Origin: an uncultured bacterium
GTDB taxonomy: Bacteria; Margulisbacteria; WOR-1; CAVSGV01
Assembly: GCA_963699255.1 (NCBI GenBank)
Contig: OY969425.1
Span: 570,001-602,000, forward strand
Direction of reading: 5' to 3'
Length of the DNA: 32,000 nucleotides
The number at the start of each line of letters is the position of its first letter. Position 1 is the stretch's first letter. The translations under genes and the position numbers were made by a program. The notes under the pieces were generated by a model. That model was given only the letters and a program-made list of their open reading frames with translations. It made no database searches and was not told where the DNA came from. Shown here one piece after another: positions 1-24,717 of the stretch.

Positions 1-43
1 AATACAGGGTCACGCTATTTGAAGTAAAGGTGCAGTTTGAGAA
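1..43 (-). CDS. Giant surface protein, fragment 5 (partial; continues past the left window edge)
   Basis: The reverse complement of 2..40 reads SNCTFTSNSVTLY with no stop, which is the canonical coil motif in the third frame. Confidence 0.5.
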
Positions 44-596
44 TCTCTATTGTGGAGGACTCACTATAGATCCCGCCGCCGCCGTATACCGCGCTATTTG
101 ATTCAAAAGAGCAGTTCAAGACGACCGGAGAGGAGGAGTAGTAGCTGGCTAAACCGCCGGCGTTGTGACCTGCCCTATTTGAAATAAAATCACAGTTTTT
201 GATGGTTGGAGAGGAATTGTCCAAACCAAGCCCGCCGCCATCTCCGCCGGAGACATAACCATTTTGTATGGTGAAGTTCTCAACGGTGGTGGCAGAACCA
301 AGCCCCTCTCCGTGCATGCACTGGACGCTGCCTTCTCCGGATATTCTGGTAAGCGAGGGATCGTTGATCTGCGCCCAACTATCGTCGTAGCCTCCCATTA
401 AATGGACGCCGCTTGAGAGAAAAATTGTGCCCGGAACAGTCAGAGAATATGTCCCCATCTTCACATGTATCTCATCGCCGTAGCGCATGTTCCCATTGCT
501 CTCGGCTGAGTTAATGGTATTAAAGGCGTCATTCGTAGAGCGGCCGGTATGAGTAAAGTCATTTCCATTGATGCTGTCAACGTACCAGATCGTTGG
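1..596 (-). other. Beta-helix module M13 (at least 3 coils; truncated by the window edge; contains the fourth frameshift)
   Basis: N-cap WYVDSINGNDFTHTGRSTNDAFNTINSAE..GDEIHVKMG; coils KNCDFISN, LNCSFESN, then (frame change) ISNCTFTSN. Confidence 0.7.
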
Positions 597-1088
597 AACA
601 GGTATGATGCTGAACTTGCCGCTTTCACCGTACCCGCTGTTGCCGGAGGTATCTACCGCGGTGATCTTTATCTTTGCCTCCGTGGTGGCGATATTAGGAA
701 CCGTCCAGGCATAGCTTCCACTGTTAGCTATACCCGTGACGATCGCAGTATAGGATGATCCCCCGTCTATTGAGTAAGAGATGCTGATGGGGTTTGTAAT
801 AAGCCCCTGATCATCGGAAGCTTCCCAGGTAATATCGTAGCTGTACCCCCCGGTCCAGACATCCCCGCCTGCGGGAGAAAAGACCTCAACGGTGGGAGGC
901 GTGATATCGGTCAGGACCGATTCAGAGCTGGTGTAACCATAATAATGGTATCCCATGTTCACTATCCCATCGTCGCCGTGGAACCTGTCCAGGTTGGTCC
1001 CGTAACCTTGCTGCCATCCAAGACCAAGTATCTGACGCCTCGCCGGTCCCGGTATTAACGCAGGGCGAGTTATTGGGAAGGTGCACAT
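15..1088 (-). CDS. Giant surface protein, fragment 4 (end of M12 C-cap, Ig-like spacer, start of M13)
   Basis: The first 19 aa are out-of-frame overlap. Homologous reading starts at LGLGWQQGYGTNLDRFHGDDGIVNMGYHYYGY (about 1028). It ends ..SESSTIEILKLHLYFK*, where a 1-nt shift gives ..STIE-ISNCTFTSNSV. Confidence 0.75.
   Translation of the reverse strand: MCTFPITRPALIPGPARRQILGLGWQQGYGTNLDRFHGDDGIVNMGYHYYGYTSSESVLTDITPPTVEVFSPAGGDVWTGGYSYDITWEASDDQGLITNPISISYSIDGGSSYTAIVTGIANSGSYAWTVPNIATTEAKIKITAVDTSGNSGYGESGKFSIIPVPTIWYVDSINGNDFTHTGRSTNDAFNTINSAESNGNMRYGDEIHVKMGTYSLTVPGTIFLSSGVHLMGGYDDSWAQINDPSLTRISGEGSVQCMHGEGLGSATTVENFTIQNGYVSGGDGGGLGLDNSSPTIKNCDFISNRAGHNAGGLASYYSSSPVVLNCSFESNSAVYGGGGIYSESSTIEILKLHLYFK
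597..932 (-). other. TWEASD Ig-like spacer 10
   Basis: DITPPTVEVFSPAGGDVWTGGYSYDITWEASDDQGLITNPISISYSIDGG..SYAWTVPNIATTEAKIKITAVDTSGNSGYGESGKFSI. Confidence 0.6.
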
Positions 1089-3999
1089 CGCCGGCAGACG
1101 GATTTACTAATTTTGGATCCGCAGTGATATTGCCGGTCATTCCGATGTAGCCGTCAGGAATGCAGGTGTAAGTTACATTTGATGAACCTCCGTTGTCGTA
1201 GATGTTCCCTCCGGTATTTCCATAAACGATCGAATTCAAAATTATCGGAGAGGATGATTCGTTATATATACCACCGCCGCTGCCTGCAATGTTTGAAGTA
1301 AAAGTGCAACCTTCAATGGTCGGAGTGCCATTGTAATCATATATCGCTCCGCCGTTGCTGCCGCCTGCGTTATTTGAAATAAAGGCGCAATTAAAGATAA
1401 ACGGTGAAGGCAAACCATAATTATCATTGTATATAGCGCCGCCGCCGTTCGTGCTTGCGCTATTTGAAATAAAGGCACAGTTTTTGATGATCGGGGTGGC
1501 ACCACTGATCCAGATAGCGCCGCCGACATTGAGCGCCCTATTTGCAATGAAATTGCAATTTGATATGGTTGGCGAAGAGTTATTGTAAAGTATAAGACCA
1601 CCGCCACCGGGGAGAAGGTGTCCATTGTAATATCCATCTCGTATGGTGAAACTTTCAATTGTGGTAGCAGAACCAAGCGAGTTCCCGATCATGCACCGGA
1701 CCTGGCCCTCTCCGGATATTATGGTAAGCGCGGGATCGTTAACTTGATTCCAGCCGTCATCATAGCCGCCCCTCAAATATATGCCGTCATAGAGAGTGAT
1801 GGTTTGTGGTCCGGTCCCCGGTCCACTGTCACTGCTGTACAGATAATATGTCCCCTGCCTCACATGTATCTCATCGCCGTAGCTCATGCCCACATTGTTC
1901 TCGGCCGCGTTGATGGTCTTGAACGGATGCTCCGCAGAACCGTCCGCGCCAGCCTCGGGAGAGGCAGCGTCTACATACCAATAGGCTGAAGCACGGGAAA
2001 TGCTGAATACTCCTGCGCTTTCACCATACCCGCTGTTGCCGGAGGTGTCTATTGCGGTTATCTTTATCCTTGCCTCCGTTGTTGAAATATTGGGAACCGT
2101 CCAGGTATACCTGCCGGTGTTAGCCGCATCTGCGGTGATCAGGTATGAATAGTTAGCTCCCCCGTCTATTGAGTAAGAGATGCTAATTGGATAATCAATA
2201 AGCCCCTCATTATCGGATGCTTCCCAGGTAATATCGTAGCTGGACCCGCCGATCAGGGCCTCTCCGCCTTCGGGAGAAATAACATCAACGGTGGGAGCCG
2301 TGAAGTCCGTGATGGCATCTTCGGAGCCCGTGTATCCGTAATAATGGTAGCCCATGTTCACCTGACCGGAATCGCCGTAAGCAAGCAAAGGATTGGTCCC
2401 GTAATGCTCGTTGTAGCTGAGGCCGTAATCTTCCGCCTGCCCTTCGCCGCTGTTAACGCAGGGCGAGTTGCTGGCAAGATGCACACCATTCACAAACAGC
2501 GGATCAGCGGTGATATTACCGGTCAATCCGATGTAACCGTCCGGAATGCAGGAGTATGTCACATTTGAAGAAGATGAGTTGTCATCGTGGATGTTCGCCG
2601 CGGAATTTCCGTAAATGATCGAGTTAATGATATTTAGAATGGAAGATGAGTCGTTATATATCCCGCCGCCGTCGCTCGCGCTATTTAAAGTTAAAGTGCA
2701 GTTTCCGATAGTTGATGTGGAGGAATCGGTGTTATATATCCCGCCGCCGGTGCCGCCACCCGTGCGATTTAAAGTAAAGACGCTGTTTGAAATGGTCGGG
2801 AATGAGTTGTCGTTGTATATCCCGCCGCCACCGTAACTACTATTACTCGCGCTATTTGAATTAAAGGTGCAGTTTGAGATGGTCGGATAGCAGGTGGAAA
2901 TGTTATATATTCCGCCGCCGGCTTCCGCGCTATTTGAAATAAAATCACAGCTTGATATGGTTGGATCGGACTGATTCTCATCATATATCCCACCGCCTTC
3001 GCCCGCGCTATTTAGCTCAAAGGTACAGCTTGAAATGGTTGGAGAAGAAACGGAATTTGCGATACCTCCGCCGCTATTTAAAGTAAAGGCGCAGCCCAGA
3101 ATGTTTGAGCCGGAGGGGAAGTAGCTATATATTCCGCCGCCGAAAGTTGCGCCATTTGATGTAAAGAAACAGTTTGAGATGGTGGATGTAGAAGAAGAAT
3201 AGCTATATATCCCGCCGCCGTAAGTATCTGCCCAATTTGAAGTAAAGGCACAGCTTGAGATGAGGGATATAGAGGCTGTGTCGTTAAATATCCCGCCGCC
3301 GCCGTAACTACAACTATTCGCGTTATTTAAATTAAAGACGCAGCTTTCGATGCTTGAGTAGGAGGAATTGCCGCAATATATACCGCCGCCGCCGTAACTG
3401 CCATAATTCGCGCTATTTGACTCAAAGGTGCAGTATGAAATAGTTAAGGTAGAGGAAGAGTTGTTATATATACCGCCGCCGTCGCCAGTCTCAGCAGTAT
3501 TTGATGTAAAGGTACAGCTGTCGATGGTCGCGGTGGAAGAGGATTCATTATATATCCCGCCGCCGGCAGCCGCGTTATTTGATGTGAAAGAGCAGGTTTC
3601 GATGTTTGCGGCCAGTCCGTTATATATACCGCCGCCTTCGCCGCCGTAATTATCATTCGAGCTGTTTTGATCAAAGCTGCAGTTTGAAATGGTCAGGACG
3701 GAAGAAGCGTCGTTATATATGCCGCCGCCATAATAATCCGCGCTATTAGATGCAAAGCCGCAGTTCGAGATATTCGCCATAGAGTTGTAGTAAACATTAA
3801 TACCGCCGCCGTAACAGTAATACGCGATATTTGAATTGAAGTTACAGTTTGAGATTCTCCGGCGCGGAGTAATCATAGATAAAGATACCGCCGCCGCCGG
3901 CGTAATCCGACCTGTTCGAATTAAAATCGCAGTGTGAGATGGTTGGAGAAGCCGCGTCGAGATAAAGTCCTCCGCCATAGTTGCCGTAAGCATAACCAT
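922..3999 (-). CDS. Giant surface protein, fragment 3 (rest of M11, Ig-like spacer, most of M12)
   Basis: The first 48 aa of the ORF-track translation (MVMLTATMAEDF..TPRRR) are out-of-frame overlap with fragment 2. Homologous reading starts at ISNCNFNSNIAYY (about 3855). After ..VNTGTGEASD (about 1030) the sequence becomes non-homologous (TWSWMAARLRDQ..). Confidence 0.75.
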   Translation of the reverse strand: MVMLTATMAEDFISTRLLQPSHTAILIRTGRITPAAAVSLSMITPRRRISNCNFNSNIAYYCYGGGINVYYNSMANISNCGFASNSADYYGGGIYNDASSVLTISNCSFDQNSSNDNYGGEGGGIYNGLAANIETCSFTSNNAAAGGGIYNESSSTATIDSCTFTSNTAETGDGGGIYNNSSSTLTISYCTFESNSANYGSYGGGGIYCGNSSYSSIESCVFNLNNANSCSYGGGGIFNDTASISLISSCAFTSNWADTYGGGIYSYSSSTSTISNCFFTSNGATFGGGIYSYFPSGSNILGCAFTLNSGGGIANSVSSPTISSCTFELNSAGEGGGIYDENQSDPTISSCDFISNSAEAGGGIYNISTCYPTISNCTFNSNSASNSSYGGGGIYNDNSFPTISNSVFTLNRTGGGTGGGIYNTDSSTSTIGNCTLTLNSASDGGGIYNDSSSILNIINSIIYGNSAANIHDDNSSSSNVTYSCIPDGYIGLTGNITADPLFVNGVHLASNSPCVNSGEGQAEDYGLSYNEHYGTNPLLAYGDSGQVNMGYHYYGYTGSEDAITDFTAPTVDVISPEGGEALIGGSSYDITWEASDNEGLIDYPISISYSIDGGANYSYLITADAANTGRYTWTVPNISTTEARIKITAIDTSGNSGYGESAGVFSISRASAYWYVDAASPEAGADGSAEHPFKTINAAENNVGMSYGDEIHVRQGTYYLYSSDSGPGTGPQTITLYDGIYLRGGYDDGWNQVNDPALTIISGEGQVRCMIGNSLGSATTIESFTIRDGYYNGHLLPGGGGLILYNNSSPTISNCNFIANRALNVGGAIWISGATPIIKNCAFISNSASTNGGGAIYNDNYGLPSPFIFNCAFISNNAGGSNGGAIYDYNGTPTIEGCTFTSNIAGSGGGIYNESSSPIILNSIVYGNTGGNIYDNGGSSNVTYTCIPDGYIGMTGNITADPKLVNPSAGDVHLPNNSPCVNTGTGEASDTWSWMAARLRDQPGQVPRRRWDSEHGIPLLWLHQL
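933..1990 (-). other. Beta-helix module M12 (5 coils; the C-cap contains the fragment 3/4 frameshift)
   Basis: N-cap WYVDAASPEAGADGSAEHPFKTINAAE..GDEIHVRQG; 5 coils; C-cap ADPKLVNPSAGDVHLPNNSPCVNTGTGEASD | LGLGWQQGYGTN..VNMGYHYYGY. Confidence 0.75.
1991..2331 (-). other. TWEASD Ig-like spacer 9
   Basis: DFTAPTVDVISPEGGEALIGGSSYDITWEASDNEGLIDYPISISYSIDGG..RYTWTVPNISTTEARIKITAIDTSGNSGYGESAGVFSI. Confidence 0.6.
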
Positions 4000-4351
4000 C
4001 CTCTATGGTGAAGTTATCAATAATGGCGGCAGAGGTAAGCCCGGATCCATACATGCACGGGACATTCCCTTCTCCGGATATTATGGTTATTGTAGGATCA
4101 TTAACCTGATTCCAGCCGTCATCATAGCCGCCCTTCAAAGATATACCATCCGTGAGATAAATCATTTGAGGTCCCGTCCCCGGTCCGCCGTCGCCGCTGT
4201 ACAGATTATATGTCCCCTTCTTCACATGTATCTCATCGCCATAGATCATGTTCATATTGCTTTCGGCCGCATTGATCGTTTTGAACGGATGCTCCGCGGA
4301 ACCGTCCGCGCCAGCCTCGGGAGAGGCCCAATCTACATGCCAGATGCCCAT
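2332..4351 (-). other. Beta-helix module M11 (17 coils, the longest; contains the fragment 2/3 frameshift)
   Basis: N-cap WHVDWASPEAGADGSAEHPFKTINAAE..GDEIHVKKG; 17 coils; frame break after coil 2 at about 3855; C-cap ..ADPLFVNGVHLASNSPCVNSG..VNMGYHYYGY. Confidence 0.8.
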
Positions 4352-7300
4352 AACACGGGAAATGCTGAATACGCCCGCGCTTTCACCGTCCCCGCTGTTG
4401 CCGGAGTTATCCAGCGCGGTCACCTTTATCATTGCCTCCGTCGTGGAGATATTGGGCACTGTCCAGGTATATCTTCCACTGTTGTCTATACCGGTTGCGA
4501 TCGAATATGGATAGCTGGCTCCCCCGTCTAATGAGTAAGAGATGCTTATGGGATTTACAGTAAGTCCGCTGCCGCCGATATTATCTGCCGCTTCCCAGGT
4601 AATATCGTAGCTGAAACCCCCGGTAAGGACTTCCCCGCCTTCAGGAGAAATGACCACTACGGTGGGAGCCGTAATGTCGGTTATGGCATCTTCGGAGCCC
4701 GTGTAGCCGTAATAATGGTAGCCCATGTTCAACTGACCGGAATCGCCGTAAGCAAGATTAGGATTCGTCCCGTAATGATGGAGGTAGTCAAGTCCCAGGC
4801 TTGCCGCGGTGGCAGAGCCGGCATTGACGCAGGGCGAGTTGCTGGCGATATGCACATCGCCGGCCGATGGAGCTATTAACTTTGGATCCGCGGTGATATT
4901 GCCGGTCATGCCAACATATCCGTCCGGAACACAGGAATACGTCACGGTAGACGACCCGCCGCTATCCAGGATATTTCCCCCTATATTCCCGGAAATGATC
5001 GAGTTGATGATCGTCGGATAAGATGATGAAGTATATATTCCGCCGCCGCCGCCGTAACCGCTGTTCGCGCTGTTTAAAGTAAAAGTGCTGTTAGCTATTG
5101 TCGGGTATGAGTTGTAAGTGCTGATATACATACCGCCGCCGGTTGCAGCGTTCGCTAGGTTTGAAGTAAAAGCACAGTTGAATATTGTCGCCGTAGAGTA
5201 AACATCATCATACATCCCGCCGCCAAAATAGCCATTCGCTTCATTTGATGTAAACGTGCAGTTCGAGAGGTTTAAGAAGTCATAGTAGCTATATAACCCG
5301 CCGCCGCCGAAAGCGCTATTTGAAGTAAAGGCGCAGCTCTCCAGGGTTAAGGTGGAGAAGTAGCCGTCATATAACCCGCCGCCGTCGCCGCTGCTTGATT
5401 CAGCTCCATTTGAAACAAAAGCACAGCCGGAGATGGATGAGAACGTATAATAACCCTCATAGATGCCACCGCCGGCTTCAGCGGTGTTTAAAGTGAACGA
5501 ACAGCCGGAAATGATCGAATTGGTATTTTCATCGTTATATATGCCGCCGCCGTAATCGCCGTTATTCGCGCTGTTCGAAATGAATAAACAGTTCGTGATC
5601 TCCTGGGTTGAAACGTCGTTATATATACCGCCGCCGCCGTTATACGCGCTGTTCGATTCAAAGGTGCAGTTTGAAAGGGTCAGATAGGCCGTTTCATCAT
5701 ATATGCCGCCTCCGTAACCGCTATTTACACTGTTTGAAATGAAGCTGCAGTTCAAGAAAGTCGGCGAGGAGCCGTTATCGGAATAATTATATACCGCGCC
5801 ACCGCCGTAGTCCGAGTTGTTCGAATCAAAGATACAGTTCGAAATCGCCGGCGAGGAATCATCCAGATATATGCCGCCGCCGTAGTCTCCGGCGGAATAT
5901 CCGTTCTTTATCGTGAAATCATCAATGACAGCGGCAAAGCTGAGCAGGTATCCGGACATGCACTCCACGTTGCCTTCTCCGGATATTATCGTAGATGAAG
6001 GACCCAGGGTCTGTTCCCAGCCGTCGTCATAGCCGCCCTTCAATTGGATGCCGTCATAGAGAATGATGGTAAGCGGCCCGTTGCCATCCTGGTACAGGTT
6101 ATAAGTCCCATGCTTAACATGTATCTCATCATCAAAGCTCGCGGCCGCCTCAGCTGAATTGATATCCATAAATGGAGATTCCGGCGTCATTCCGCTGTTC
6201 CCCTCGGGAGAGGCGGCGTCCACATACCAGATATGCGTGCTTGAATCCGTCTTCTGCCAGAACCCGGAATAATGGTAGCCCATGTCCACCTTTCCGGAAT
6301 CGCCGTTCTGCCCATTCGGGTTGGTCCCGTAACCCTGCTGCCATGCCAGCCTATGGCTGAAGGCCGAGCCCAGCCCGGCATCTACGCAATCCGAGGTCGG
6401 GAGCAGATATAAGTCTCCATACGGCCCGGTCGCGAACAGTGGATCCGTACTGATATTGTCCGCGCCGCTGCCCGACCACCCGTCCTGGACGCAGGAATTA
6501 TTTACGGTCGAAGAGCCTCCGTTATCGAAGATGCTTCCGCCGGTATTCCCGTATATGATCGAATTGAAAATTGTCGGAGAGGTTGTGTCATTATATATTC
6601 CGCCGCCTTTGTTGTCAGGCGCGCTATTTAAAGTAAAGGTGCAGTTTTCGATCGTCGTGGTGGAGTTTATGTTAAATATCCCGCCGCCGCTGCTGCTTGC
6701 GCTATTTAAAGCAAAGGCGCAGTTTGAAATGGTTGAGAAGGAATAGTAGCCGTTATATATCCCGCCTCCATGGAGAGGTGTGCTATTTAAAGTAAAGAAG
6801 CAGTTTGAAATGGTTGAGAAGCCGTAGTCGCTATATATTCCGCCGCCGCCGCCACTTGCTTCGTTTGAAGTAAAAGTGCAGTCTTCGATAATTGCCATGG
6901 AGGTGTAATCATAAAAGTTGTTACATATACAGCCGCCGCGGCCAGAGTATTTATTTAAAGTGAAATCGCAGTTTGAAATGGTTGAAATGAAATAGCTCCC
7001 ACCGAGATTAATTATACATCCGCCGTTATTTGACTCAAATGTGCAGTGAGAGATCGTTGAGAAAGCTGAATAGTTAACTATGCCGGCGCCGACTTCTACG
7101 GTATTTGAAGCAAACATGCATCTGGAGATCGTTGGGTTGGAAGAATCGTCGTTATATATACAGCCGCCATCACCATACAAGCTGTTATTTAAAGTGAACG
7201 TGCTGTCTGTGATCTCCAGTGTTGCGGTGGGGGCAGTATATATCCCGCCGCCGCTCAAATATGCGCTATTTGATTTAAAGGTACAGTTTGAGACAGTTAA

Positions 7301-9859: not shown

Positions 9860-10134
9860 CGCGGCTACCTTTATCCTGGCTTCGGTCGTTGAAATGTTGG
9901 GGGCGCCCAGGAATATCTTCCGCTGTTAGTTATACCGGCTACTATCAAATTATAGGTAGTTCCCCCGTCAATTGAATAATATATGCTGATGGGATTATCA
10001 ATAAGCTCCTGATCATCGGAAGCTTCCCAGGTAATGTCGTATAGCGTCCCGCCGGTCCAGACATCCCCGTTCGCGGGAGAATAGACCTCAACAATGGGAA
10101 GCGTGGTGTCGGTAATAAGGTTTGCGGAAACTGA
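9800..10134 (-). other. TWEASD Ig-like spacer 6, split by the fragment 1/2 frameshift
   Basis: DTTLPIVEVYSPANGDVWTGGTLYDITWEASDDQELIDNPISIYYSIDGG..GRYSW | (frame change at 9899-9903) | PNISTTEARIKVAAVDTSYNMGYGESDGTFSI. Confidence 0.65.
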
Positions 10135-19100: not shown

Positions 19101-22100
19101 TGTTCGCCATGCCGCCGCCGAGCGCGCTGAGCCCGTTGCTTACGCTGTTCAAAATAAAGGTCGTGTTTTCAATGTCAGGAGAAGAATTGTCGTTCTCCAG
19201 GCCGCCCCCGTTTTCCGCGGTATTTGAAGTAAAGGCGCAGTTTTCAACGGTCGGCGATGAAGCATAGTTCCATAACCCGCCGCCGCTGCCGCTGTCCGCG
19301 TGATTTGAAGTAAAAGCGCAGTTTGAAACTGTTGAAGCCAGCACTCCACTGTTAAACATCCCGCCGCCGTTCGAATCCGCGCTGTTAGAAATAAAGTCGC
19401 AGTTCAAAACTTCCGGAGTTGAAGAAGAATCGCTATACATCCCGCCGCCGTAGTTCGCGATATTTGACTCAAATGAGCAGTTTGAGATAGTTGGGGAGGA
19501 AAAAGTTTCGTTATACATCCCTCCGCCCTCTATCCCGCCGCTGTTCGATGTAAAGGTGCAGTTTGAAATTGTCGGGAAGCAATAATTATCATTCAGCATT
19601 CCGCCGCCAAACACCTCAGCGCTGTTAGAAATAAAGGCGCAATTAGAGATGAATGGAAAAGAGGCGTCACCACTATTAATTCTTGAATTACTAATACCTG
19701 CGCCGCCGCCCGCGCGGTTCAATATAAAGGTGCAATTAGAGACCTCCGGAGATGAGCCGTCGATACAAAGCCCTCCACCGGCATCCCCTGCATAATTTGA
19801 CTCAAAACTGCAGCTTGAAAAAGTTGAAAAAGAGCGAAACATATATATTCCGCCGCCCTGGTAATACGTGTAATTGGATACGAATGCGCAGTTCAATATG
19901 GTCGGTGAAGAATATTCCAGATAAAGTCCGCCGCCGAGGCCGAAAACCGCCCTGTTATTATTAAAGGCACAGTTCGTGATCGTTGGTGAAGAATAAAAAA
20001 GAGCGGCCCCGGCGCCCTTGCCGCCAGTGTCGCCTTCGTATTCATTGACATACCCACCTTGTATCGTGAGGTTTTCAATGGTGGTAGCGGAGCTAAGATC
20101 GTCGCCATACAAGCACCGGACGCTGCCCTCTCCGGATATTATAGTGATTGAAGGGTCATCGATTTGATTCCAACCGTTGTCATATCCGCCTCTCAAATAT
20201 ACGCCGTCCTCGAGAGTGATGGTGCCTGTATGCGGAGCGGTCAGGGAATAGACTCCCATTCTTACATGTATCTCATCACCGTCAATCGCGGCAGACTCGG
20301 CGCTGTTGATGGTATTGAGCGGAGACTCCGGCGTCATTCCGCTGTTCCCCTCCGGAGAAGCCGCATCCACGTACCAGGTCGCAGGATGGCGTATGCTGAA
20401 CTCCCCGCTTTCGCCGGTGCCAAGGTTATAATAAGCATCGGCCATTGTGATCTTTATTTTGGCCTCATTGGTGACAAGATTGGGAACCGTCCAGGGATAG
20501 CTTGTAAGAGTTGCGTCACATGTATCGATCTTAGTATAGACCTTCCCCTCATTTGTTGAATAATAGATGGTGACGGGACTGATAAGCCCGTCGCTATCGG
20601 ACGCTTCCCAGGTAATATCGCGGCTGGTGCCTGTAACCCAGGCATTGCCGGCTGCCGGAGAATATAAAGTGATAGTTGGAGGCGTTGAATCGGGTACATT
20701 TTGTTCAGAGTTAGTGTATCCGGAATAATGGTAGCCCATGTTAACTCTTCCGGCATCGCCATATATCGCCAGAGAATGTGTCCCGTAACCCTGACCGAAA
20801 CCTAATCCAAGGTCTGAAGCCTCGCCGGTCCCTTTATCAACGCAGGGCGAGTTGTTGTAAAGGTGCGCATCGCCTGCTGACGCATTAACGAACAGCGGAT
20901 CTGCATGGATAACGCCGGCGCCTGAAATTATTCCCGGAAAACAGGAATAAGTAATAGTTGGATTGTTGCCTTGAATATCGACTGCGGAATTACCGTAAAT
21001 TATTGAGTTCTTTACTGTAGGAGTACATGAAAAGCTATACAGCCCGCCACCGTTAACTGCGGTATTTTCTGTTAAAGTGCAGTTTGAAATGATCGGCGAA
21101 GATTGGATACAATATATCCCGCCGCCGCCATAACCACCCGTGCCGGCAGTTGAGATATTGAATATAAAGAGGCAGTTTGAGATGGTCGGGGTGGAGTTGG
21201 ATACCTGGCTATATATTCCGCCGCCGGAAGCCCCGGTGTTTGAAGTAAAGGTACAGTTTTCGATGGTTATATTTGCGGTGGCGGCATACTCATATATATA
21301 TATGCCTCCACCGCCGGTGGTGCTTGCGCTATTTGAAGCAAAGGCGCAGTTTGAGATAGTTGGGGAGCCGTAAAAACTAGCTATACCGCCTCCGTTAGTA
21401 GCGTCTGCGCTATTTGACTCAAAGGTACAGTTTAATACCTCCGGGGTGGAGTTGTTGCCATATATTCCGCCGCCGAAACCGGCAATTGCCTTATTTGAAG
21501 TGAAAGTGCAATTTTGAAAGACAGGGGAAGATGCTGTGGCAAATACCCCGCCGCCGCCTGAATTTGCCCTGTTTGAAGTAAAGGCGCAATTTCGGATGGT
21601 CGGGGAGGAGGTGGTAAGAACAAGTCCGCCGCCACAGCCGGCAGCGCCGGAGCCGGAGTTATAACCATTATTTATGGTGAAGCATTCAATAATGGTAGCG
21701 GAGTTAAGGTTTGTTCCGGACAAACATTTGACACTGCCCTCTCCTGATATTATGGAAAGCGAAGGGTCATTAGTGGGATTCCAGCTGTCGTCATAACCGC
21801 CTCCCAAATATACGCCGTTTTTGAGAGTAATAGTGGCAGGCAAACGATATGTCCCGTGTTTCACAAGTATCGCGTCACCGGTAGAGACAACCGACTCGGC
21901 GGTGTTTATGGTTTGAAAGGCGTCAAGCGCAGTAAGCCCGCTGTTAGAGTCGCGCCCATTAATGCTATCAACATAATAAGTTAAAGGCATATTATTCGAC
22001 TCCAGAAATTGATAGGCCTGGGTCGCCCCGACAGGGTCAGAAAGCTGAGTGACAGTGCCGGCCGTGTCATCCAGGGGAACGGCATAGACGGTGTGATATC

Positions 22101-24459
22101 CGCAAGTTAACGAAGAAGGCGCTGTCCCGGTCCATGTCCTGGTAGTTGTGCCTCCTCCCAATGCAGCCATGGTCCAGGGCCCCTGAGTGGAGTCTATCTG
22201 GAACCCTACCATCTTGATCGTGGAATTGGTCAGTGTGGTAGTGGCTGTACCGCTGAAGGAGGGAGTTGTGTTCTTTGTTAAATTATTAACAAAAGGATTG
22301 ATCGAGGTTGTTAAAGGAGAAGACACTGTCTCTTCGGATATCACGGTTACATTACCACTGTTATTATTGGCCACATAGATCTTATTGGTGTTGGGATTTA
22401 CGGCTACATAACCAGGATGAGTTCCGGTAGTTACCGTAGTGGTGGTATTAGTAGCTCCATCAATTACGGTTACATTACCACTGTTATTATTGGCCACATA
22501 GATCTTATTGGTGTTGGGATTTACGGCTACAGATAAAGGAGTGTTTCCGGCAGTTACTGTAGTGGTTGTATTAGTAGATCCATCGATCACGGTTACGTTA
22601 TTGCTGGTAGCCTGATTGACCACATAGATCTTATTGGTATTGGGGTTTACAGCTACATCACTAGGATAAGTTCCGGCAGTTACCGTAGTGATGACATTAT
22701 TAGTAGCCCCATCGATCACGGTTACATTATTACTCCCAAAATTAGCCACATAGATCGTGTTGGTCTTGGGGTTTACGGCTACTGCTCTAGGATTAGTTCC
22801 GGCAGTTACCGTAGTGATGACATTATTAGTAGCTCCATCGATCACGGTTACATTACCACTATCATTATTAGCCACATATATCTTATTGGTATTAGGGTTG
22901 ACGGCTACTGCATCAGGGGCCGTCCCGGTAGTTACCGTAGTGGTGACATTATTAGTAGCTCCATCAATTACGGTTACATTATTGCTAAGAGGATTAGCCA
23001 CATAGACCTTATTGGTATTGGGGTTTACGGCTAAAGCATTAGTATTACTTCCGACAGTTATTGTAGCGGTGGAATTATCAGCCCCATTGATCACGGTCAC
23101 ATTGGGACTACCTGTATTAGACACATAGACCTTATTGGTAATGGCGTTTACGGATACAGCCTGAGGATAAGTTCCGACAGCTACCGTAGTGATGACACCA
23201 TTAGTAGCTCCATTGATCACGGTTACATTATTAGTGCCATTATTTACCGCATAGATCTTGTTGGTATTGGGGTTTACGGCCACTGCATCAGGGCCAGATC
23301 CGACGGTTACCGTAGCGGTGGAATTTGCAGCCCCATCGATCACGGTCACATTATTAGTGCTCATATTGGCCACATAGATCTTATTGGTATCGGGGTTTAC
23401 AGCTAAAGATTGAGCGCCAGATCCCACAGTTATCGTAGCGGTGGAATTGTCAGCCCCATTGATCACGGTTACATTGTAATCCAAATAATTTGCCACATAG
23501 ATATTATTGGTGTTGGGGTTTACGGCTACGGCATACGGATAAGTTCCGACAGTTACCGTAGTGGTGACATTATTAGTGGTTCCATCGATCACAGATACAG
23601 TATTACTATTTTGATTGCCCACATAGACCTTATTGGTATTTGGGTTTACGGCTACAGGCCAAGGTTGAGACCCAACAGTTACTGTAGTAATGACACTATT
23701 ATTAGCTCCATTGATCACGGTTACAGAACCACTGGAATTATTGGTCACATAGATCTTATTGTTATTGGGGTTTACGGCTACTGCACGAGGGCCAGATCCG
23801 ACGGTTACCGTAGTGGTAACGGCATCAGTAGCCCCATTGATCACGGTTACGGTCCCGCCCCCCAAATTAGCCACATAGATAACATTGGTATGAGGGTTTA
23901 CGGCTACTGCATAAGGAATACTTCCGACAGTTATCGTAGTTATGACATTATTAGTAGCCCCATCGATCACGGTTACATTATTAGTATTTGCATTGGCTAC
24001 ATAGATCTTATTGGTATCGGGGTTTACGGCTACTGCAATAGGATATGTTCCGACAGCTACTTCAGTGGTGATATTAGTGGCTCCATCGATCACGGTTACA
24101 GCATTACTATTCTGATTAGCCACATAGATCTTATTGGTATTGGGGTTTACGGCTACTGCATCAGGATTAGCTCCGACCGTTACTTGAGTGGTGGTATTAG
24201 TAGCCCCATCGATCACGGTTACAGTGTTACCGCCACTATTTGCCACATAGATCTTATTAGTATTGGGGTTCATGGCTACAGCAATAGGTTGACTTCCAAC
24301 CGTTACCGTTGCGGTAACCGATTGAGTGTGCGCCAGGGATACAAGCATCAGTAAAAAGAAGCAGGAAATAAGAAGTACTAAGCTGGATTTTCTTTTTGAA
24401 TTTTGCACCAACTTAAAATAAAAAAAATCGATCCAAGAAGCCTGTGTCTTCCTAGACAT
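9871..24459 (-). CDS. Giant surface protein, fragment 1 (N-terminal 4862 aa): signal peptide, 16 YVTN blades, Ig-like domain, beta-helix modules M1-M7, 3 FN3 domains
   Basis: ATG at 24457-24459. N-terminus MSRKTQ..KRKSSLVLLISCFFLLMLVSLAHT. Ends ..NSGRYSWAPPTFQRPKPG* where paralogous spacers read ..SGRYTWTVPNISTTEA. The stop lies 9 codons after a 1-nt deficit at the plus-strand G5 run 9899-9903. Confidence 0.9.
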   Translation of the reverse strand: MSRKTQASWIDFFYFKLVQNSKRKSSLVLLISCFFLLMLVSLAHTQSVTATVTVGSQPIAVAMNPNTNKIYVANSGGNTVTVIDGATNTTTQVTVGANPDAVAVNPNTNKIYVANQNSNAVTVIDGATNITTEVAVGTYPIAVAVNPDTNKIYVANANTNNVTVIDGATNNVITTITVGSIPYAVAVNPHTNVIYVANLGGGTVTVINGATDAVTTTVTVGSGPRAVAVNPNNNKIYVTNNSSGSVTVINGANNSVITTVTVGSQPWPVAVNPNTNKVYVGNQNSNTVSVIDGTTNNVTTTVTVGTYPYAVAVNPNTNNIYVANYLDYNVTVINGADNSTATITVGSGAQSLAVNPDTNKIYVANMSTNNVTVIDGAANSTATVTVGSGPDAVAVNPNTNKIYAVNNGTNNVTVINGATNGVITTVAVGTYPQAVSVNAITNKVYVSNTGSPNVTVINGADNSTATITVGSNTNALAVNPNTNKVYVANPLSNNVTVIDGATNNVTTTVTTGTAPDAVAVNPNTNKIYVANNDSGNVTVIDGATNNVITTVTAGTNPRAVAVNPKTNTIYVANFGSNNVTVIDGATNNVITTVTAGTYPSDVAVNPNTNKIYVVNQATSNNVTVIDGSTNTTTTVTAGNTPLSVAVNPNTNKIYVANNNSGNVTVIDGATNTTTTVTTGTHPGYVAVNPNTNKIYVANNNSGNVTVISEETVSSPLTTSINPFVNNLTKNTTPSFSGTATTTLTNSTIKMVGFQIDSTQGPWTMAALGGGTTTRTWTGTAPSSLTCGYHTVYAVPLDDTAGTVTQLSDPVGATQAYQFLESNNMPLTYYVDSINGRDSNSGLTALDAFQTINTAESVVSTGDAILVKHGTYRLPATITLKNGVYLGGGYDDSWNPTNDPSLSIISGEGSVKCLSGTNLNSATIIECFTINNGYNSGSGAAGCGGGLVLTTSSPTIRNCAFTSNRANSGGGGVFATASSPVFQNCTFTSNKAIAGFGGGIYGNNSTPEVLNCTFESNSADATNGGGIASFYGSPTISNCAFASNSASTTGGGGIYIYEYAATANITIENCTFTSNTGASGGGIYSQVSNSTPTISNCLFIFNISTAGTGGYGGGGIYCIQSSPIISNCTLTENTAVNGGGLYSFSCTPTVKNSIIYGNSAVDIQGNNPTITYSCFPGIISGAGVIHADPLFVNASAGDAHLYNNSPCVDKGTGEASDLGLGFGQGYGTHSLAIYGDAGRVNMGYHYSGYTNSEQNVPDSTPPTITLYSPAAGNAWVTGTSRDITWEASDSDGLISPVTIYYSTNEGKVYTKIDTCDATLTSYPWTVPNLVTNEAKIKITMADAYYNLGTGESGEFSIRHPATWYVDAASPEGNSGMTPESPLNTINSAESAAIDGDEIHVRMGVYSLTAPHTGTITLEDGVYLRGGYDNGWNQIDDPSITIISGEGSVRCLYGDDLSSATTIENLTIQGGYVNEYEGDTGGKGAGAALFYSSPTITNCAFNNNRAVFGLGGGLYLEYSSPTILNCAFVSNYTYYQGGGIYMFRSFSTFSSCSFESNYAGDAGGGLCIDGSSPEVSNCTFILNRAGGGAGISNSRINSGDASFPFISNCAFISNSAEVFGGGMLNDNYCFPTISNCTFTSNSGGIEGGGMYNETFSSPTISNCSFESNIANYGGGMYSDSSSTPEVLNCDFISNSADSNGGGMFNSGVLASTVSNCAFTSNHADSGSGGGLWNYASSPTVENCAFTSNTAENGGGLENDNSSPDIENTTFILNSVSNGLSALGGGMANIESSLPVLNNCAFISNHSSGGGGGIYNGASTPEISNCTITSNSATSGGGIANYCSSPGIINSIIFGNSVDNISNGSSSPDIKYSCIEGGYLGDGNISDNPQFVAGLNNVHLYNTSPCVNYGTGEAFDLGLGSEEGYGTNQNTLYGDSLRVNMGYHYSGYAGPETDISDTTPPSVTVYTPSGSTVWSGGESRDITWDASDSGGLTDPVTIYYSTDEGATYNKIGTCEYTDKTYSWTVPNINTNEAMVKVTVPDNSYNLGSGASPAFTIGSVPLAPTNLSTINKTTTTAYSSWSVPAGSPAYYVISYGTNADNADNINTIMTTEADYSWSGLNPATQYYWKVLATNEVGAGPYSTIASFKTRSSSLTVWYVDAASPEGNSGTTPESPFNTIQSAESAAFGGDEIHVRQGIYSLADTGTVTLEDGVYLRGGYDNGWNQGTGTLTTIISGEGSVQCMYGIDLSPTTTIEGFTIQNGSATDGGGLYLTNSSPTVKNFFFVSNNADHGGGIYNTNYSSPAIFNCTFTSNSAFWGTYSDGGGGGIYNSNHSSPVIYNCIIYGNPGGSILNDSTSSSGVNYSCIQGGCSGIGNISTDPLFRNAPNDVHLYANSPCVNTGTGEAFDLGLGSEEGYGTHPLAQYGDSLRVNMGYHYSGYTGPESNITDHTAPAVSVEDPAGGVSWVVGSSKDVDWMASDSGGGSLINPITIYYSIDGGASYPYKIATKNTTDSDYMWTIPGTPTTDARIKITAVDSYYNLGSGASQVFNIVATPLAPTGLVTTNQTTNSADSSWTVPDGQPDTYIIRWGTDPTATNGGIITTTAANYSWSGLTPATTYYWKVSGSNEAGEGLPSAIASFKTWRETPAIWYVDAASPEGNSGDTPESPFRTINSAESAAYGNDQILVKQGTYDLTDPGTGTIILGNGVSLTGGYDDSWTQTGTWSATIVDGGNAVRCMYGSGLSSSTTIEYFTIMRGNSGYSYSGNGGGIYLTDSSPTITNCAFALDHAASYGGGIYYSGGAPIISDCIFTSNSADSDGGALFGDDSAAKILDCTFTSNNVDDYGGAIFNANSSGILIANCIFTSNSAGGVDIGGGGAICNAYSSLDIVNCIFTTNSAHFYGGGAIYNNHSSPHIYGCTFAADSAPRVGGAIWNVQGSHSTIVNSIVYGCYGGDIFNDPADSSLSATYCDIGTDPLYPGVGNINGNPYLVDPLTGDVHIASNSPCINAGTPDAYALTYNLTNGYGTNPDGVHGDSSNVNIGYHYYSAGYVLPEDDISDITPPAVTVYSPAGGERWIVGSTHDISWTAADENGLIYPITIYYATGETDVDTYKIDTVDISTTHYTWTVPFIASTWAEIKIVALDHSYNSGTGLSNAFTILSKPLTPEGLFTNGIAETTANGTWEVPVGLPTYYIVSYGIDPSASNMGTRITYEASYTWPVLSPNTKYYWKVLATNEAGSSAYSRPVSFETLSGPPGPLTFYVNANAPGPGPGIGTIDDPFKTINSAEAAVMTGTEEIHVMRGVYSLSTPGTGTISLESGTFLMACNYDWTPADDPSLTVISGDAAVQCLYGSGLSSATTIEGFTIQNGRSTYGGGFYLTNSSPTIINCAFTSNCGVGNGGAIENDYSSSPTISNCTFTSNEAPTGAGIFSERSPVILNCNFILNTTLTGVSKGNGGGIYQSSGTYPVISNCTFESNNAYSGGGIFDDNSFSIINNCTFTSNSADASGGGILHQDSSAATIENCAFTSNHAPYGGGIDISSSSPIISNCVFTLNSAETTGGGILNISSSPIISNCTITSNSAPYGAGAAGGICNNDSAPIISNSIIYGNSGGSFLDTSNSHSTVTYSCIDFYFVGVGNISDDPQFVNGPAGDVHLSRHNNSPCISTGTGQASDLGLGWEQHYGTNPDGIRGDTGIVDMGYHYYGYQQPDTTTLTWYVDSASPEGNSGMTPESPFKTINEAELVAVISDEIHVKHGVYSLTAPNTGTITLEDGVYLRGGYDNGWAQTLGPSTTIISGEGSVQCVYGLNLSSATTIEYFTIKKGYNSDAGGGLYLENSSPTISNCFFTLNSAEGNGGGGIYLTDSSPTILYCDFVSNEAGGGDGGGIYNAGGSSIISNCSFASNSGGGGGIFNSDVDASLIISNCSFTSNSGDGIFNNASNPTISNCVFISNSSPGSGGGIENNLSSPTISNCAFALNSASMGGGIWNNFQSNPIISDCTFTLNSASDHGAGIDNSSNCHPVISNSIIYGNLGASIIDESASSSTVTYSCIQGGWEGEGNISAEPLFVYGTNNVHLYNNSPCINTGIGNAFDLGLGSEEGYGTHPLAQYGDALKVNMGYHYSGYTGPETDINDIMPPTIEVISPAPGDTLTGGASYNITWEVKEDPANLIGPIMISYSTDEGATYNLIAADANVNHTSHSWTVPNINTAHARIKVAVADYPAYNLGTGESGVFSIGAGAPTARIWYVDAASPEGNSGMTPGSPFKDINSAESIAGYGDEIHVKKGTYYLYSGDGGPGTGPQTITLYDGIYLRGGYDDGWNQVNDPALTIISGEGNVPCLYGSGLTSAAIIDNFTIEDGYSSASNGSGYGYGSGLYLDSSSLTISNCDFTSNNADYGGGGIFISDYSAPEISNCNFDSNISNSGNGGGIFNDSSSVLTISNCAFTSNNAAEGGGIYNFLSASIESCAFTSNTAYYGGGIFNISTATIDSCTFTSNTAEGGDGGGVANYDYANSGISNCTFESNSAIYDSGGGLYCDVFSSMTVSNCSFKSNSAYNKGGGVYCAYSDASIESCDFTLNSANIEGGGLDLNDSYTHLNISNCTFNSNYAYYGGGIVINNASPTFENCALISNGANIAGGVYSEGTSFSPTFLNCTVTLNRSDGNVGGGLFNYGSSMTIFNSIIYWNSGQNLTNYSAPSAVNVTCSCVQAGDTVGTGFDGTGNISADPFFAHPELGDVHLYNNSPCVNSGEGQAEDWGLSYNEHYGTNPDGVHGDDGLVDMGYHYSGYSVSANLITDTTLPIVEVYSPANGDVWTGGTLYDITWEASDDQELIDNPISIYYSIDGGTTYNLIVAGITNSGRYSWAPPTFQRPKPG
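10135..11763 (-). other. Beta-helix module M7 (12 coils)
   Basis: N-cap WYVDAASPEGNSGMTPGSPFKDINSAE..GDEIHVKKG; 12 coils; C-cap ..ADPFFAHPELGDVHLYNNSPCVNSG..VDMGYHYSGY. Confidence 0.8.
11764..12114 (-). other. TWEASD-type Ig-like spacer 5
   Basis: DIMPPTIEVISPAPGDTLTGGASYNITWEVKEDPANLIGPIMISYSTDEG..HSWTVPNINTAHARIKVAVADYPAYNLGTGESGVFSI. Confidence 0.6.
12115..13344 (-). other. Beta-helix module M6 (8 coils)
   Basis: N-cap WYVDSASPEGNSGMTPESPFKTINEAE; 8 coils; C-cap ..AEPLFVYGTNNVHLYNNSPCINTG..VNMGYHYSGY. Confidence 0.8.
13365..14706 (-). other. Beta-helix module M5 (9 coils; divergent N-cap)
   Basis: N-cap FYVNANAPGPGPGIGTIDDPFKTINSAE; 9 coils; C-cap ..DDPQFVNGPAGDVHLSRHNNSPCISTG..VDMGYHYYGY. 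A ~7-aa linker joins it directly to M6, with no Ig spacer. Confidence 0.75.
14727..14995 (-). other. Fibronectin type III domain 3
   Basis: PLTPEGLFTNGIAETTANGTWEVPVGLPTYYIVSYGI..YTWPVLSPNTKYYWKVLATNEAGSSAYSRPVSFET. Confidence 0.8.
14996..15324 (-). other. TWEASD-type Ig-like spacer 4
   Basis: DITPPAVTVYSPAGGERWIVGSTHDISWTAADENGLIYPITIYYATGE..YTWTVPFIASTWAEIKIVALDHSYNSGTGLSNAFTI. Confidence 0.6.
15325..16533 (-). other. Beta-helix module M4 (7 coils)
   Basis: N-cap WYVDAASPEGNSGDTPESPFRTINSAE..NDQILVKQG; coils use GGAI/GGGI plus [ND]C.FTSN; C-cap ..GNPYLVDPLTGDVHIASNSPCINAG..VNIGYHYYSAGY. Confidence 0.75.
16553..16815 (-). other. Fibronectin type III domain 2
   Basis: PLAPTGLVTTNQTTNSADSSWTVPDGQPDTYIIRWGT..YSWSGLTPATTYYWKVSGSNEAGEGLPSAIASFKT. 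Confidence 0.8.
16816..17154 (-). other. TWEASD-type Ig-like spacer 3
   Basis: DHTAPAVSVEDPAGGVSWVVGSSKDVDWMASDSGGGSLINPITIYYSIDGGASY..YMWTIPGTPTTDARIKITAVDSYYNLGSGASQVFNI. Confidence 0.6.
17155..18012 (-). other. Beta-helix module M3 (3 coils, the shortest)
   Basis: N-cap WYVDAASPEGNSGTTPESPFNTIQSAE; only 3 coils (KNFFFVSN, FNCTFTSN, YNCIIYGN); C-cap ..TDPLFRNAPNDVHLYANSPCVNTG..VNMGYHYSGY. Confidence 0.75.
18030..18295 (-). other. Fibronectin type III domain 1
   Basis: PLAPTNLSTINKTTTTAYSSWSVPAGSPAYYVISYGT..YSWSGLNPATQYYWKVLATNEVGAGPYSTIASFKT, with the classic P.aPt.l / W / Y.v.Y / L.P.t.Y.. v.A.N..G.g FN3 pattern. Confidence 0.8.
18296..18624 (-). other. TWEASD-type Ig-like spacer 2
   Basis: DTTPPSVTVYTPSGSTVWSGGESRDITWDASDSGGLTDPVTIYYSTDEG..YSWTVPNINTNEAMVKVTVPDNSYNLGSGASPAFTI. 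Confidence 0.6.
18625..20385 (-). other. Beta-helix module M2 (14 coils)
   Basis: N-cap WYVDAASPEGNSGMTPESPLNTINSAE..GDEIHVRMG; 14 [NS]C.F..N coils; C-cap ..NPQFVAGLNNVHLYNTSPCVNYG..VNMGYHYSGY. Confidence 0.8.
20386..20715 (-). other. TWEASD Ig-like spacer 1
   Basis: DSTPPTITLYSPAAGNAWVTGTSRDITWEASDSDGLISPVTIYYSTNEG..YPWTVPNLVTNEAKIKITMADAYYNLGTGESGEFSI. Confidence 0.6.
20716..21984 (-). other. Beta-helix module M1 (8 coils)
   Basis: N-cap YYVDSINGRDSNSGLTALDAFQTINTAE; coils GGGIY..NCTFTSN; C-cap ADPLFVNASAGDAHLYNNSPCVDKG..VNMGYHYSGY. Confidence 0.8.
21985..22334 (-). other. Bacterial Ig-like domain linking the propeller region to the first beta-helix module
   Basis: ..TPSFSGTATTTLTNSTIKMVGFQIDSTQGPWTMA..TRTWTGTAPSSLTCGYHTVYAVPLDDTAGT.. 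matches the tP.fsGta ... G.htv.a.a.D.aG pattern typical of adhesin Ig-like domains. Confidence 0.5.
22335..24318 (-). repeat. 16 tandem YVTN-family beta-propeller blades (41 aa / 123-bp period)
   Basis: Sixteen hand-counted units of consensus VTVGs.P.AVAVNPNTNKIYVAN..sNNVTVIDGATN.V. On the plus strand the motif acatagatcttattggtattggggtttacggctac recurs every ~123 bp. Confidence 0.85.
24325..24459 (-). other. N-terminal signal peptide / signal anchor of the giant protein (about aa 1-45)
   Basis: Basic n-region (KRK), a hydrophobic run LVLLISCFFLLMLVSL, then A-H-T/QS before the first propeller blade. Confidence 0.7.
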
Positions 24460-24468
24460 TAGGGCGTT

Positions 24469-24497
24469 ATTTTAGCATAAGACGAGAAAAAATGCAA
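24469..24497 (-). promoter_or_regulatory. Candidate sigma70-type promoter of the giant gene (TTGCAT-17 nt-TAAAAT), implying a leaderless or near-leaderless mRNA
   Basis: The minus strand reads tccTTGCATtttttctcgtcttatgcTAAAATaacgccctaATG. The -10 element ends 9 nt before the ATG, and no Shine-Dalgarno sequence is visible. Confidence 0.3.
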
Positions 24498-24508
24498 GGA
24501 GATTTTGA

Positions 24509-24679
24509 AAGGAAGAGAGGAAATATTGGGAATACAGGGATACTGGAATATGGTTTAGGAAATGGGGAATTAGGATTCGATCGTTTTATCAAAAGATTTA
24601 TACTGCTCCCCATATCCCTTTTAACCATATCCCCAAACTTATTCCCCATATTCCGATATCCCCTTTTTCCGCTATTCCC
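24509..24679 (+). repeat. Intergenic palindromic GGRATAT-rich element, copy 1 (between the divergent giant gene and the PBP gene)
   Basis: The left arm carries GGAAATAT/GGGAATAC/GGGATAC/GGAATATGG units. The right arm carries their complements (CCATATCCC, ATATCCCC, CCATATTCC, GATATCCCC, TATTCCC). ggaatatgg at 24545-24553 pairs with ccatattcc at 24646-24654. The whole unit aligns to the reverse complement of 28195..28372. Confidence 0.7.
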
Positions 24680-24694
24680 TTGTAACTTCAACTG

Positions 24695-24703
24695 TGATAT
24701 AAT
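24695..24703 (+). promoter_or_regulatory. Candidate extended -10 promoter (TGaTATAAT) for the PBP/phosphohexomutase operon
   Basis: tgtgaTATAATctcctcctgtttttATG. The TATAAT ends 14 nt before the ATG at 24718, giving a very short leader with no SD. No convincing -35 element. Confidence 0.3.
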
Positions 24704-24717
24704 CTCCTCCTGTTTTT

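Follow-up and report, generated by a model that had tools for sequence, protein, structure and literature searches.

Adhesin-like proteins (ALPs) with up to seven right-handed beta-helix domains have been described for methanogenic archaea (PMC11532034). In the bacteria, the giant proteins of the Omnitrophota are secreted, multidomain products of uncultivated organisms with small genomes, and a role in adhesion has been proposed for them (West-Roberts et al. 2023, bioRxiv 10.1101/2023.11.21.568195). These giants of more than 30,000 aa contain C39/S8 peptidase, SecA-like, and antiparallel beta-helix regions (bioRxiv 10.1101/2023.11.21.568195). The Margulisbacteria are also rich in very large genes and huge proteins, none of which has been characterized (PMC11573180; bioRxiv 10.1101/2023.11.21.568195). 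Here, we analyzed a stretch of DNA of 32,000 nt (the window), a large part of the minus strand of which is occupied by a giant gene. With moderate confidence, we propose that this giant gene is a single unit and encodes a Sec-exported, non-enzymatic fibre with adhesin-like properties on the surface of a bacterium of the Margulisbacteria lineage.

Between the window edge and position 24459, the minus strand contains four long ORFs (9871-24459, 3842-9859, 922-3999, and 15-1088). Their products have sizes of 4862, 2005, 1025, and 357 aa and are, according to the ORF listing, encoded in frames 0, 1, 0, and 2, respectively. A preliminary description of this DNA gave no weight to the four frame breaks. 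In its deposited form, the gene consists of four ORFs in different frames. After four single-base repairs, i.e., the addition of one C to a run of five C and the removal of a single base from each of the three remaining sites, translation of the mended minus strand yielded 8152 codons without a stop. Three-frame translation at the junctions revealed that all four breaks are located within a domain, namely one in an Ig domain, two in helix rungs, and one in a C-cap, and no fresh signal peptide was seen after any of them. As each break lies in mid-domain and the single-base repairs restore a stop-free frame, the four ORFs belong to a single gene and not to an operon of paralogues. The single very long, secreted, modular protein of the preliminary description was thus recovered, with 8152 stop-free codons once mended. 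Its placement on one strand also stood, whereas the stated lack of an internal gap is correct only after the frame repairs and incorrect for the four ORFs as deposited.

The public annotation contains four separate proteins (P0245, P0261, P0371, and P0012) of 4497, 1999, 984, and 313 aa. P0245, which is the public call for the first ORF, begins at the internal Met366 and thereby loses the signal peptide and eight blades of the propeller. On the plus strand, opposite the YVTN repeats, there is a further ORF of 314 aa (23410-24354) with a repetitive translation ('IDHGY…'); rather than a gene, it represents a shadow ORF of the repeat array. Searches of the window for RNA families and tRNAs gave no match. 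The giant gene has the following features, from the N-terminus onward:

1..24459, minus strand: giant gene as far as the window reaches, >24 kb, 8152 codons when mended, with the C-terminus beyond position 1
24322..24459, minus strand: N-terminal signal-peptide region with n-region KRK, hydrophobic core, and AHT-QS, judged by eye
22306..24321, minus strand: tandem double propeller according to the AF2 model, with 16 YVTN beta-propeller blades that repeat every 41-42 aa
21991..22305, minus strand: post-propeller beta-sandwich domain, which many 'YVTN family' surface proteins have conserved along with the array of 16 blades
20716..21987, minus strand: bead 1 (N-cap, coils, and C-cap)
18625..20385, minus strand: bead 2
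17155..18012, minus strand: bead 3, the shortest (286 aa)
15334..16536, minus strand: bead 4
13366..14709, minus strand: bead 5, which joins bead 6 directly without a spacer
12115..13347, minus strand: bead 6
10135..11763, minus strand: bead 7
8558..9799, minus strand: bead 8, modelled with AF2 together with its Ig spacer
6260..8221, minus strand: bead 9, which joins bead 10 directly
4703..6238, minus strand: bead 10
2332..4351, minus strand: bead 11, the longest (673 aa), which holds frame break 2
933..1989, minus strand: bead 12, with frame break 3 in its C-cap
2..596, minus strand: bead 13, cut by the window edge, which holds frame break 4
within 618..20700, minus strand: ten Ig-like spacers of the Big_7 / Kre9_KNH type
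20404-20700, 18313-18609, 16834-17139, 15013-15312, and 11794-12099, minus strand: Ig-like spacers 1-5
9821-10116, 8246-8539, 4376-4684, 2014-2313, and 618-914, minus strand: Ig-like spacers 6-10
~18022-18294, ~16546-16815, and ~14722-14994, minus strand: three fn3 domains (coordinates converted from residue numbers)

Translation may start either from the ATG at position 24459 or from a GTG/TTG close to 24410. The YVTN blades, 16 according to motif and local-HMM counts, span residues ~47-718, and the YVTN model TIGR02276 reached 352.9 bits (cut-off 27.85). The best sequence match of the head in the PDB was the YVTN S-layer protein 1L0Q (E = 1.2e-52). The head was modelled with AF2 from an alignment of 60 sequences (pLDDT 92.4, pTM 0.85), and the predicted structure comprises 64 strands, which correspond to 16 four-stranded blades, plus a beta-sandwich. 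The top fold matches of this model were the tandem double propellers 2ymu, Utp21, and BT4673 as well as 1L0Q. The unit of 16 blades and a sandwich recurs in many 'YVTN family' surface proteins of ~1200-1370 aa with identities of 45-60%, several of which have T9SS-type tails.

The remainder of the protein is a chain of beta-helix modules, or beads, each of which starts with an N-cap ([WY]YVD…PF.TIN.AE…) and ends with a C-cap (…ADPLF…HL..NSPC…MGYHY). The 13 N-caps are located at residues 828, 1362, 2153, 2645, 3254, 3708, 4236, 4891, 5417, 6078, 6707, 7494, and 7958, and 12 C-caps are present, because the 13th bead is cut by the window edge. The bead sizes of 286-673 aa track the number of rungs of 26-28 aa, and in total there are ~100 canonical C.F..N rungs. 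Direct joins between beads occur twice (5-6 and 9-10), and each fn3 domain comes right after the Ig spacer behind beads 2, 3, and 4. The Pfam family Beta_helix (PF13229) scored 291.9, 193.8, and 126.3 bits in ORFs 1-3 (cut-off 25.9), fn3 63.2 bits with three stretches (cut-off 25), Chlam_PMP 46.3 bits (cut-off 20.6), POMP_repeat 19.9-21.4 bits (cut-off 15), Big_7 33.1 bits (cut-off 24.1), and Kre9_KNH 26.7 bits (cut-off 24.6). The match to DUF1565 (PF07602; 31.6 bits, cut-off 20.3) was marginal and confined to three stretches in ORF1. None of the NCBIfam choice-of-anchor Q models matched any of the four ORFs at E <= 0.01; the bead homologues P0047 and P0083 (E ~1e-34 and 8e-28) carry this name at NCBI.

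The AF2 model of bead 8 and its Ig spacer (alignment of 62 sequences; pLDDT 94.7, pTM 0.92) predicts a regular right-handed parallel beta-helix with rungs of three strands, followed by an Ig-like sandwich. A Foldseek comparison of the bead model with the PDB yielded weak, generic beta-helix matches, i.e., a PL9 rhamnogalacturonan lyase (E = 8e-4, TM 0.31) and, also weak, pectin methylesterase, AlgE4, and a tailspike. No sequence relative of the bead was found in the PDB. The preliminary description had listed a single signal peptide, a head of double-propeller size with 16 YVTN blades, and a string of 13 beta-helix modules joined by 10 Ig-like spacers and 3 FN3 domains. The signal peptide was confirmed by eye, the blades by TIGR02276, the blade counts, and the 64 modelled strands, and all other numbers hold, with the 13th module cut by the edge. 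The resemblance of the N-cap to DUF1565 that it had noted was found as well, albeit marginally. HMM searches and a structure prediction per module had been proposed as checks: the families YVTN, Beta_helix, fn3, DUF1565, Chlam_PMP, Big_7, and Kre9_KNH scored above their cut-offs, and the models gave propellers for the head and a beta-helix for bead 8.

The four frame breaks have the following positions and contexts:

9898..9902, minus strand: frame break 1, a run of five C where six C would maintain the frame (W-A-P-P-N-I); the break is inside an Ig domain, and the translation reads …GRYSW and then …PNISTTEARIKV…
3851..3859, minus strand: frame break 2 in a helix rung, GAGAATCTC for GAGATCTC (E-I-S-N-C) on the coding strand; …SAPE and then ISNCNF…
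1026..1032, minus strand: frame break 3 in a C-cap, GATACTT for GATCTT (D-L-G-L-G) on the coding strand, a would-be AGATCT; …GEASD and then LGLGWQQGYGTN…
39..47, minus strand: frame break 4 in a helix rung, GAGATTCTC for GAGATCTC (E-I-S-N-C) on the coding strand; …STIE and then ISNCTF…

Errors of long-read sequencing at methylated motifs are well established. At three of the four indels of the giant gene, a single A or T has been inserted into a would-be AGATCT (GAGA[A]TCTC, GAGAT[T]CTC, and GAT[A]CTT). The window contains 13 intact AGATCT sites, ~0.25% of its positions are inside one, and by our own arithmetic the chance that three of four indels fall into AGATCT is ~6e-8, i.e., of the order of 1e-7. 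Both would-be copies of the octamer palindrome GAGATCTC in the window are disrupted by a central A/T insertion, and an intact copy is not present. In the uninterrupted ORF of the relative L003 this octamer encodes S-E-I-S-N-C in frame, and the relative protein P0288 terminates with '…STPENLKLHF', which is the same signature ('PENLKL'). A related MAG of a nanopore project, L002 (CAVYHE010000003.1, MFD03726.bin.2.164), is full of frameshifts; between positions 10001 and 16500 they affect FtsE, PBP1A, phosphohexomutase, and a SurA-like gene at a frequency of ~1/kb. The proteins of L002 are unreliable for comparison, and the contexts of its frameshifts revealed no clear motif. Indels at homopolymers have been documented for nanopore assemblies (PMC9262707). 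Taken together, the three indels in AGATCT, the in-frame octamer of L003, the signature in P0288, and the frameshifts of L002 indicate that the four breaks are most likely motif-specific long-read sequencing errors and that the gene is intact in the cell. The AGATCT error, if it is one, is sporadic, as 13 sites are intact.

The link to AGATCT suggests a type of error that is motif-specific, possibly related to methylation, and that could fragment genes systematically across the MAGs of this lineage. Programmed frameshifting was considered as well and was rejected, because a slippery or stalling context is lacking and both A and T were inserted at the palindrome centre.

Alternatively, the frameshifts could be real, and the gene could be a recent pseudogene or could alternate between on and off states through indels in a hypermutable motif. 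The product would then comprise only the first 4862 aa, that is, the head and seven beads without a C-terminal anchor. The four breaks do stand in the deposited sequence (P0245, P0261, P0371, and P0012), but across 8152 codons there is no other lesion. The remaining ~7.5 kb of the window are free of frameshifts, which speaks for this reading; however, the lack of breaks in 7.5 kb is unsurprising, as 1.2 would be expected and P is ~0.3 (own arithmetic). The accessory nature of the locus, which is dispensable in relatives, is a further point in favour of real frameshifts; the lesions, however, are single A/T insertions at a palindrome centre and not in a repeat tract of the phase-variation type, and the signature recurs in the unrelated copy P0288. 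We regard real frameshifts as unlikely; among the rival explanations they nevertheless come first, followed by a string of glycan-active enzymes and, last, by separate genes or a misassembly.

The neighbours of the giant gene encode PBP1A, phosphohexomutase, a SurA-like PPIase, FtsX, FtsE, and SHMT, and the contig from which the window was taken has a length of 1,770,855 bp. The named homologues of PBP1A are from Candidatus Margulisiibacteriota (76% identity) and from Saganbacteria / WOR-1 (56-62%). As judged from this PBP1A homology, the host is a bacterium of the Margulisbacteria lineage and does not belong to the Omnitrophota, and the link to episymbiotic or predatory lineages that had been drawn in the preliminary description was not borne out. 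A genome scan with PBP1A returned one relative, L002. In L084, L086, L087, and L002, PBP1A is 85-89% identical, and aroQ is located upstream of PBP1A, sometimes with a small unrelated insert; the giant gene is absent from the slot adjoining PBP1A in all four. A giant gene occupies this slot only in the closest relative, L003 (PBP1A 94%), where it runs without interruption for at least 3242 codons. The L003 protein is 52% identical to that of the window over 2286 aa, and its first bead follows directly after the signal peptide without a YVTN head. The flanking genes are 85-89% identical to those of L003 at the DNA level. The absence of the giant gene from the slot in four relatives and the identity of 52% for the L003 protein versus 85-89% for the flanks indicate that the giant gene is an accessory, fast-diverging island.

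The region from 24356 to 24503 of the window, which comprises the 5′ leader and the first ~35 codons, is 88% identical to L003 9687-9833. Between the two genomes, the cassette for export and expression is conserved, while the payload is swapped (head present or absent, 52% identity). The aroQ-PBP1A slot contains a giant gene in the window and in L003, nothing in L084, a KAP NTPase and unknown genes in L086, and an unknown gene of 250 aa in L087. It looks like an insertion hotspot beside core cell-wall genes. A sigma-70-like promoter was not found in the divergent intergenic region of 258 bp (24460-24717).

Homologues with a single bead are abundant; they are named 'parallel beta-helix repeat', 'choice-of-anchor Q', or 'predicted outer membrane repeat', and many are from Planctomycetota. 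Homologue searches with single-module proteins return matches of up to ~1.74 times the length of the query (917/527 aa and 1378/791 aa), so that giants cannot appear in them. In a metagenome scan with a profile of the bead junction, most matches covered the C-cap only, and the contig of L003 was not recovered. The metagenome loci include ORFs with 3-7 C-caps. One of them, L010, is a complete protein of 3077 aa with five beads and two LamG domains, and in L042 and L037 an S8 peptidase head is attached to the beads. Giants of 4.7-6.4 kaa from a representative library contain 5-10 C-caps that alternate with 8-15 Ig domains of the type found in the window (P0290, P0318, P0285, P0305, P0311, P0289, P0314, and P0355), and P0311 has seven DUF1565 stretches. 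The Ig part of the junction profile matches giants with up to 56 stretches of this domain per protein. Beads and YVTN blades were not found together in any of the 150 best representatives, apart from the fragment of the window itself.

The homologues also have C-termini that can be compared with the truncated protein of the window. L004 is 56% identical across the junction and continues in the order bead, Ig, three fn3, unassigned region, and Por_Secre_tail; its C-terminus scored 32.1 bits with Por_Secre_tail (TIGR04183; cut-off 23). A domain of this type is the exact C-terminus of P0314, P0285, P0289, and many Ig-repeat giants. In L004 (3899-5019), a DUF208/QueH-like gene and then dapA follow, not aroQ, and the genomic context differs from that of the window locus. 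A search of ~150 kb of Margulisbacteria loci did not reveal a C-terminal domain of the T9SS type, and no literature linking the Margulisbacteria to T9SS was found.

The proposed surface fibre has the following order: a signal peptide, a YVTN double propeller of 16 blades with a beta-sandwich, and at least 13 capped right-handed beta-helices with Ig and fn3 spacers, the rungs of which have a PMP-like period of 26-28 aa. By analogy to the relatives, the missing C-terminus would carry the signal for export and anchoring, probably a domain of the Por_Secre_tail / FlgD-Ig type. Given such C-terminal anchoring, the N-terminal propellers might be located at the distal tip of a segmented rod with a length of the order of 100-150 nm, an estimate that assumes ~170 rungs of 0.48 nm, 13 spacer domains of ~3.5-4 nm, and the head. 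Binding of glycans or proteins on the surface of other cells or of a substrate could take place at the propeller head and at the flat helix faces, which we infer by analogy to the binding proposed for beta-helix adhesins and methanogen ALPs. The gain, loss, and divergence of modules at the locus might shift the specificity of binding. The role as an adhesin or fibre, which had already been suggested in the preliminary description, is upheld as the most reasonable interpretation.

In a different scenario, the beads would be strung polysaccharide-active enzymes (lyases, esterases, or epimerases), and the protein would be a giant multi-catalytic glycan degrader and not an adhesin. The beta-helix is also a common enzyme fold, and the weak Foldseek matches include the fold of pectate and rhamnogalacturonan lyases, pectin methylesterase, and AlgE4; however, the near-invariant residues in the alignment of the bead family are confined to G, N, C, P, F, Y, T, I, L, S, and M, and no conserved D, E, K, R, or H was found in this alignment. 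The lack of a conserved acidic or basic residue argues against a conserved active site in the beads and agrees with the preliminary description, which had recognized no catalytic motif. Some of the multi-bead relatives have LamG, S8 peptidase, or weak Pectinesterase matches, but no CAZyme-type Pfam family scored in the protein of the window, and its rungs are highly regular, resemble those of PMPs, and lack long loops for an active site. A string of enzymes appears doubtful and is even less probable than real frameshifts.

A more specific version of the adhesin-like fibre would be a fibre for the recognition of a partner or host in a Margulisbacteria lineage with a small genome (about 1.8 Mb) that lives attached to other cells. 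In this joint reading, the distal YVTN double propeller and the interchangeable beads would form a rapidly evolving specificity cassette. If true, this would explain the head-less, 52% identical version in L003 as well as the empty slot in other relatives; at present it is a speculation, to which we assign a low probability, slightly below that of the enzyme string. More generally, the position of an accessory, fast-diverging island beside core cell-wall genes makes the giant gene a candidate determinant of surface interactions.

The internal repeats are 74-85% identical at the DNA level, with a longest exact repeat of 66 bp, and the N-caps are 44-74% identical to each other. Because the repeats have diverged to at most 85% identity and the longest exact match is 66 bp, paralogues are unlikely to have been collapsed or fused into a chimera. 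The weakest rival, several separate paralogous genes or a chimeric misassembly of them, could point to the four CDS of the public annotation and to the repetitive sequence, but it is very improbable and essentially excluded by the mid-domain breaks, by ORFs that overlap or abut without the context of a ribosome-binding site or signal peptide, by the restoration of the frame with one base per break, by repeats too diverged to collapse, and by the one continuous ORF of L003.

The locus provides a concrete, well-modelled architecture for one of the uncharacterized huge proteins of the Margulisbacteria. It also illustrates how length-based surveys can overlook giant genes when indels at certain motifs break them up in long-read MAGs, as the public annotation splits the gene in four and drops the signal peptide.

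A comparison with known systems places the proposed fibre among several classes of surface proteins. The ALPs of Methanobrevibacter smithii and Methanosphaera stadtmanae are likewise secreted and contain several helices per chain as well as bacterial Ig-like domains (PMC11532034). Their presumed role is the binding of glycans or cells, and they have no assigned enzymatic function (PMC11532034). The giant protein matches this type, a secreted chain of several helices and Big-type Ig domains, in terms of architecture. The ALPs differ in that they are archaeal, have far fewer helices, lack a YVTN double-propeller head, and are anchored in another way. The premise of the preliminary description that Pmp and pectate-lyase-fold proteins carry one helix was wrong in view of the up to seven helices of the methanogen ALPs (PMC11532034), and it is also contradicted by many metagenomic giants with 5-10 beta-helix modules.

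The single-module beta-helix proteins of Planctomycetota and other phyla and the multi-bead giants (L010, L057, L075, P0285, P0290, P0311, P0314, and P0318) have the same N-cap as the giant protein and share with it the GGxI/NCxFxxN rungs and the 'ADPLF..HL..SPC' C-cap. Some of the multi-bead relatives alternate beads with the same type of Ig domain and end in a Por_Secre_tail-type domain. The differences are that they are ~26-50% identical and contain 1-10 beads, versus at least 13 in the window, and that the multi-bead relatives have other heads (S8 peptidase, C25 propeptide, or none) and other tails (LamG). The chlamydial Pmps and autotransporter passengers have the GGA(I/L/V) and FxxN rungs in common with the giant protein, and also the architecture of a beta-helical adhesin passenger. 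However, Pmps consist of one passenger helix and a C-terminal beta-barrel, whereas 13 N-caps and 12 C-caps mark 13 capped helices in the giant protein, interspersed with spacers; in place of a Pmp-like barrel, the relatives of the giant protein have a T9SS-type domain at the C-terminus.

The YVTN surface proteins (the Methanosarcina S-layer protein 1L0Q and bacterial proteins of ~1200-1370 aa) have the same repeat, and the unit of ~16 blades and a sandwich covers 98% of the head, but they run on into Ig, fn3, or C-terminal sorting domains and not into a chain of beta-helices. The C39/S8 peptidase, SecA-like, and antiparallel beta-helix regions of the Omnitrophota giants were not found in the giant protein of the window, and the Omnitrophota are a different phylum from that of its host. 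The Ig-repeat giant adhesins (LapA, SiiE, and the Mobiluncus adhesin of 7651 aa) are alike in scale, in their rod-like modular build, and in the type of Ig-like domain. These adhesins are chains of Ig domains that are exported via T1SS or anchored by sortase, whereas here the Ig domains are only spacers and the signal peptide is of the Sec type. With its Sec-type N-terminus (judged by eye) and beta-helix rod, the giant protein does not conform to RTX or LapA-type T1SS adhesins, and Pfam searches found no RTX/HemolysinCabind families in its 8152 aa. In summary, chains of beta-helix modules are already known, and the giant protein, which is unusually long, belongs to a widespread group of functionally uncharacterized, adhesin-like giants; what is new is that at least 13 beads are combined with a double-propeller head of YVTN blades, as well as the lineage and the evidence of a hypervariable island.
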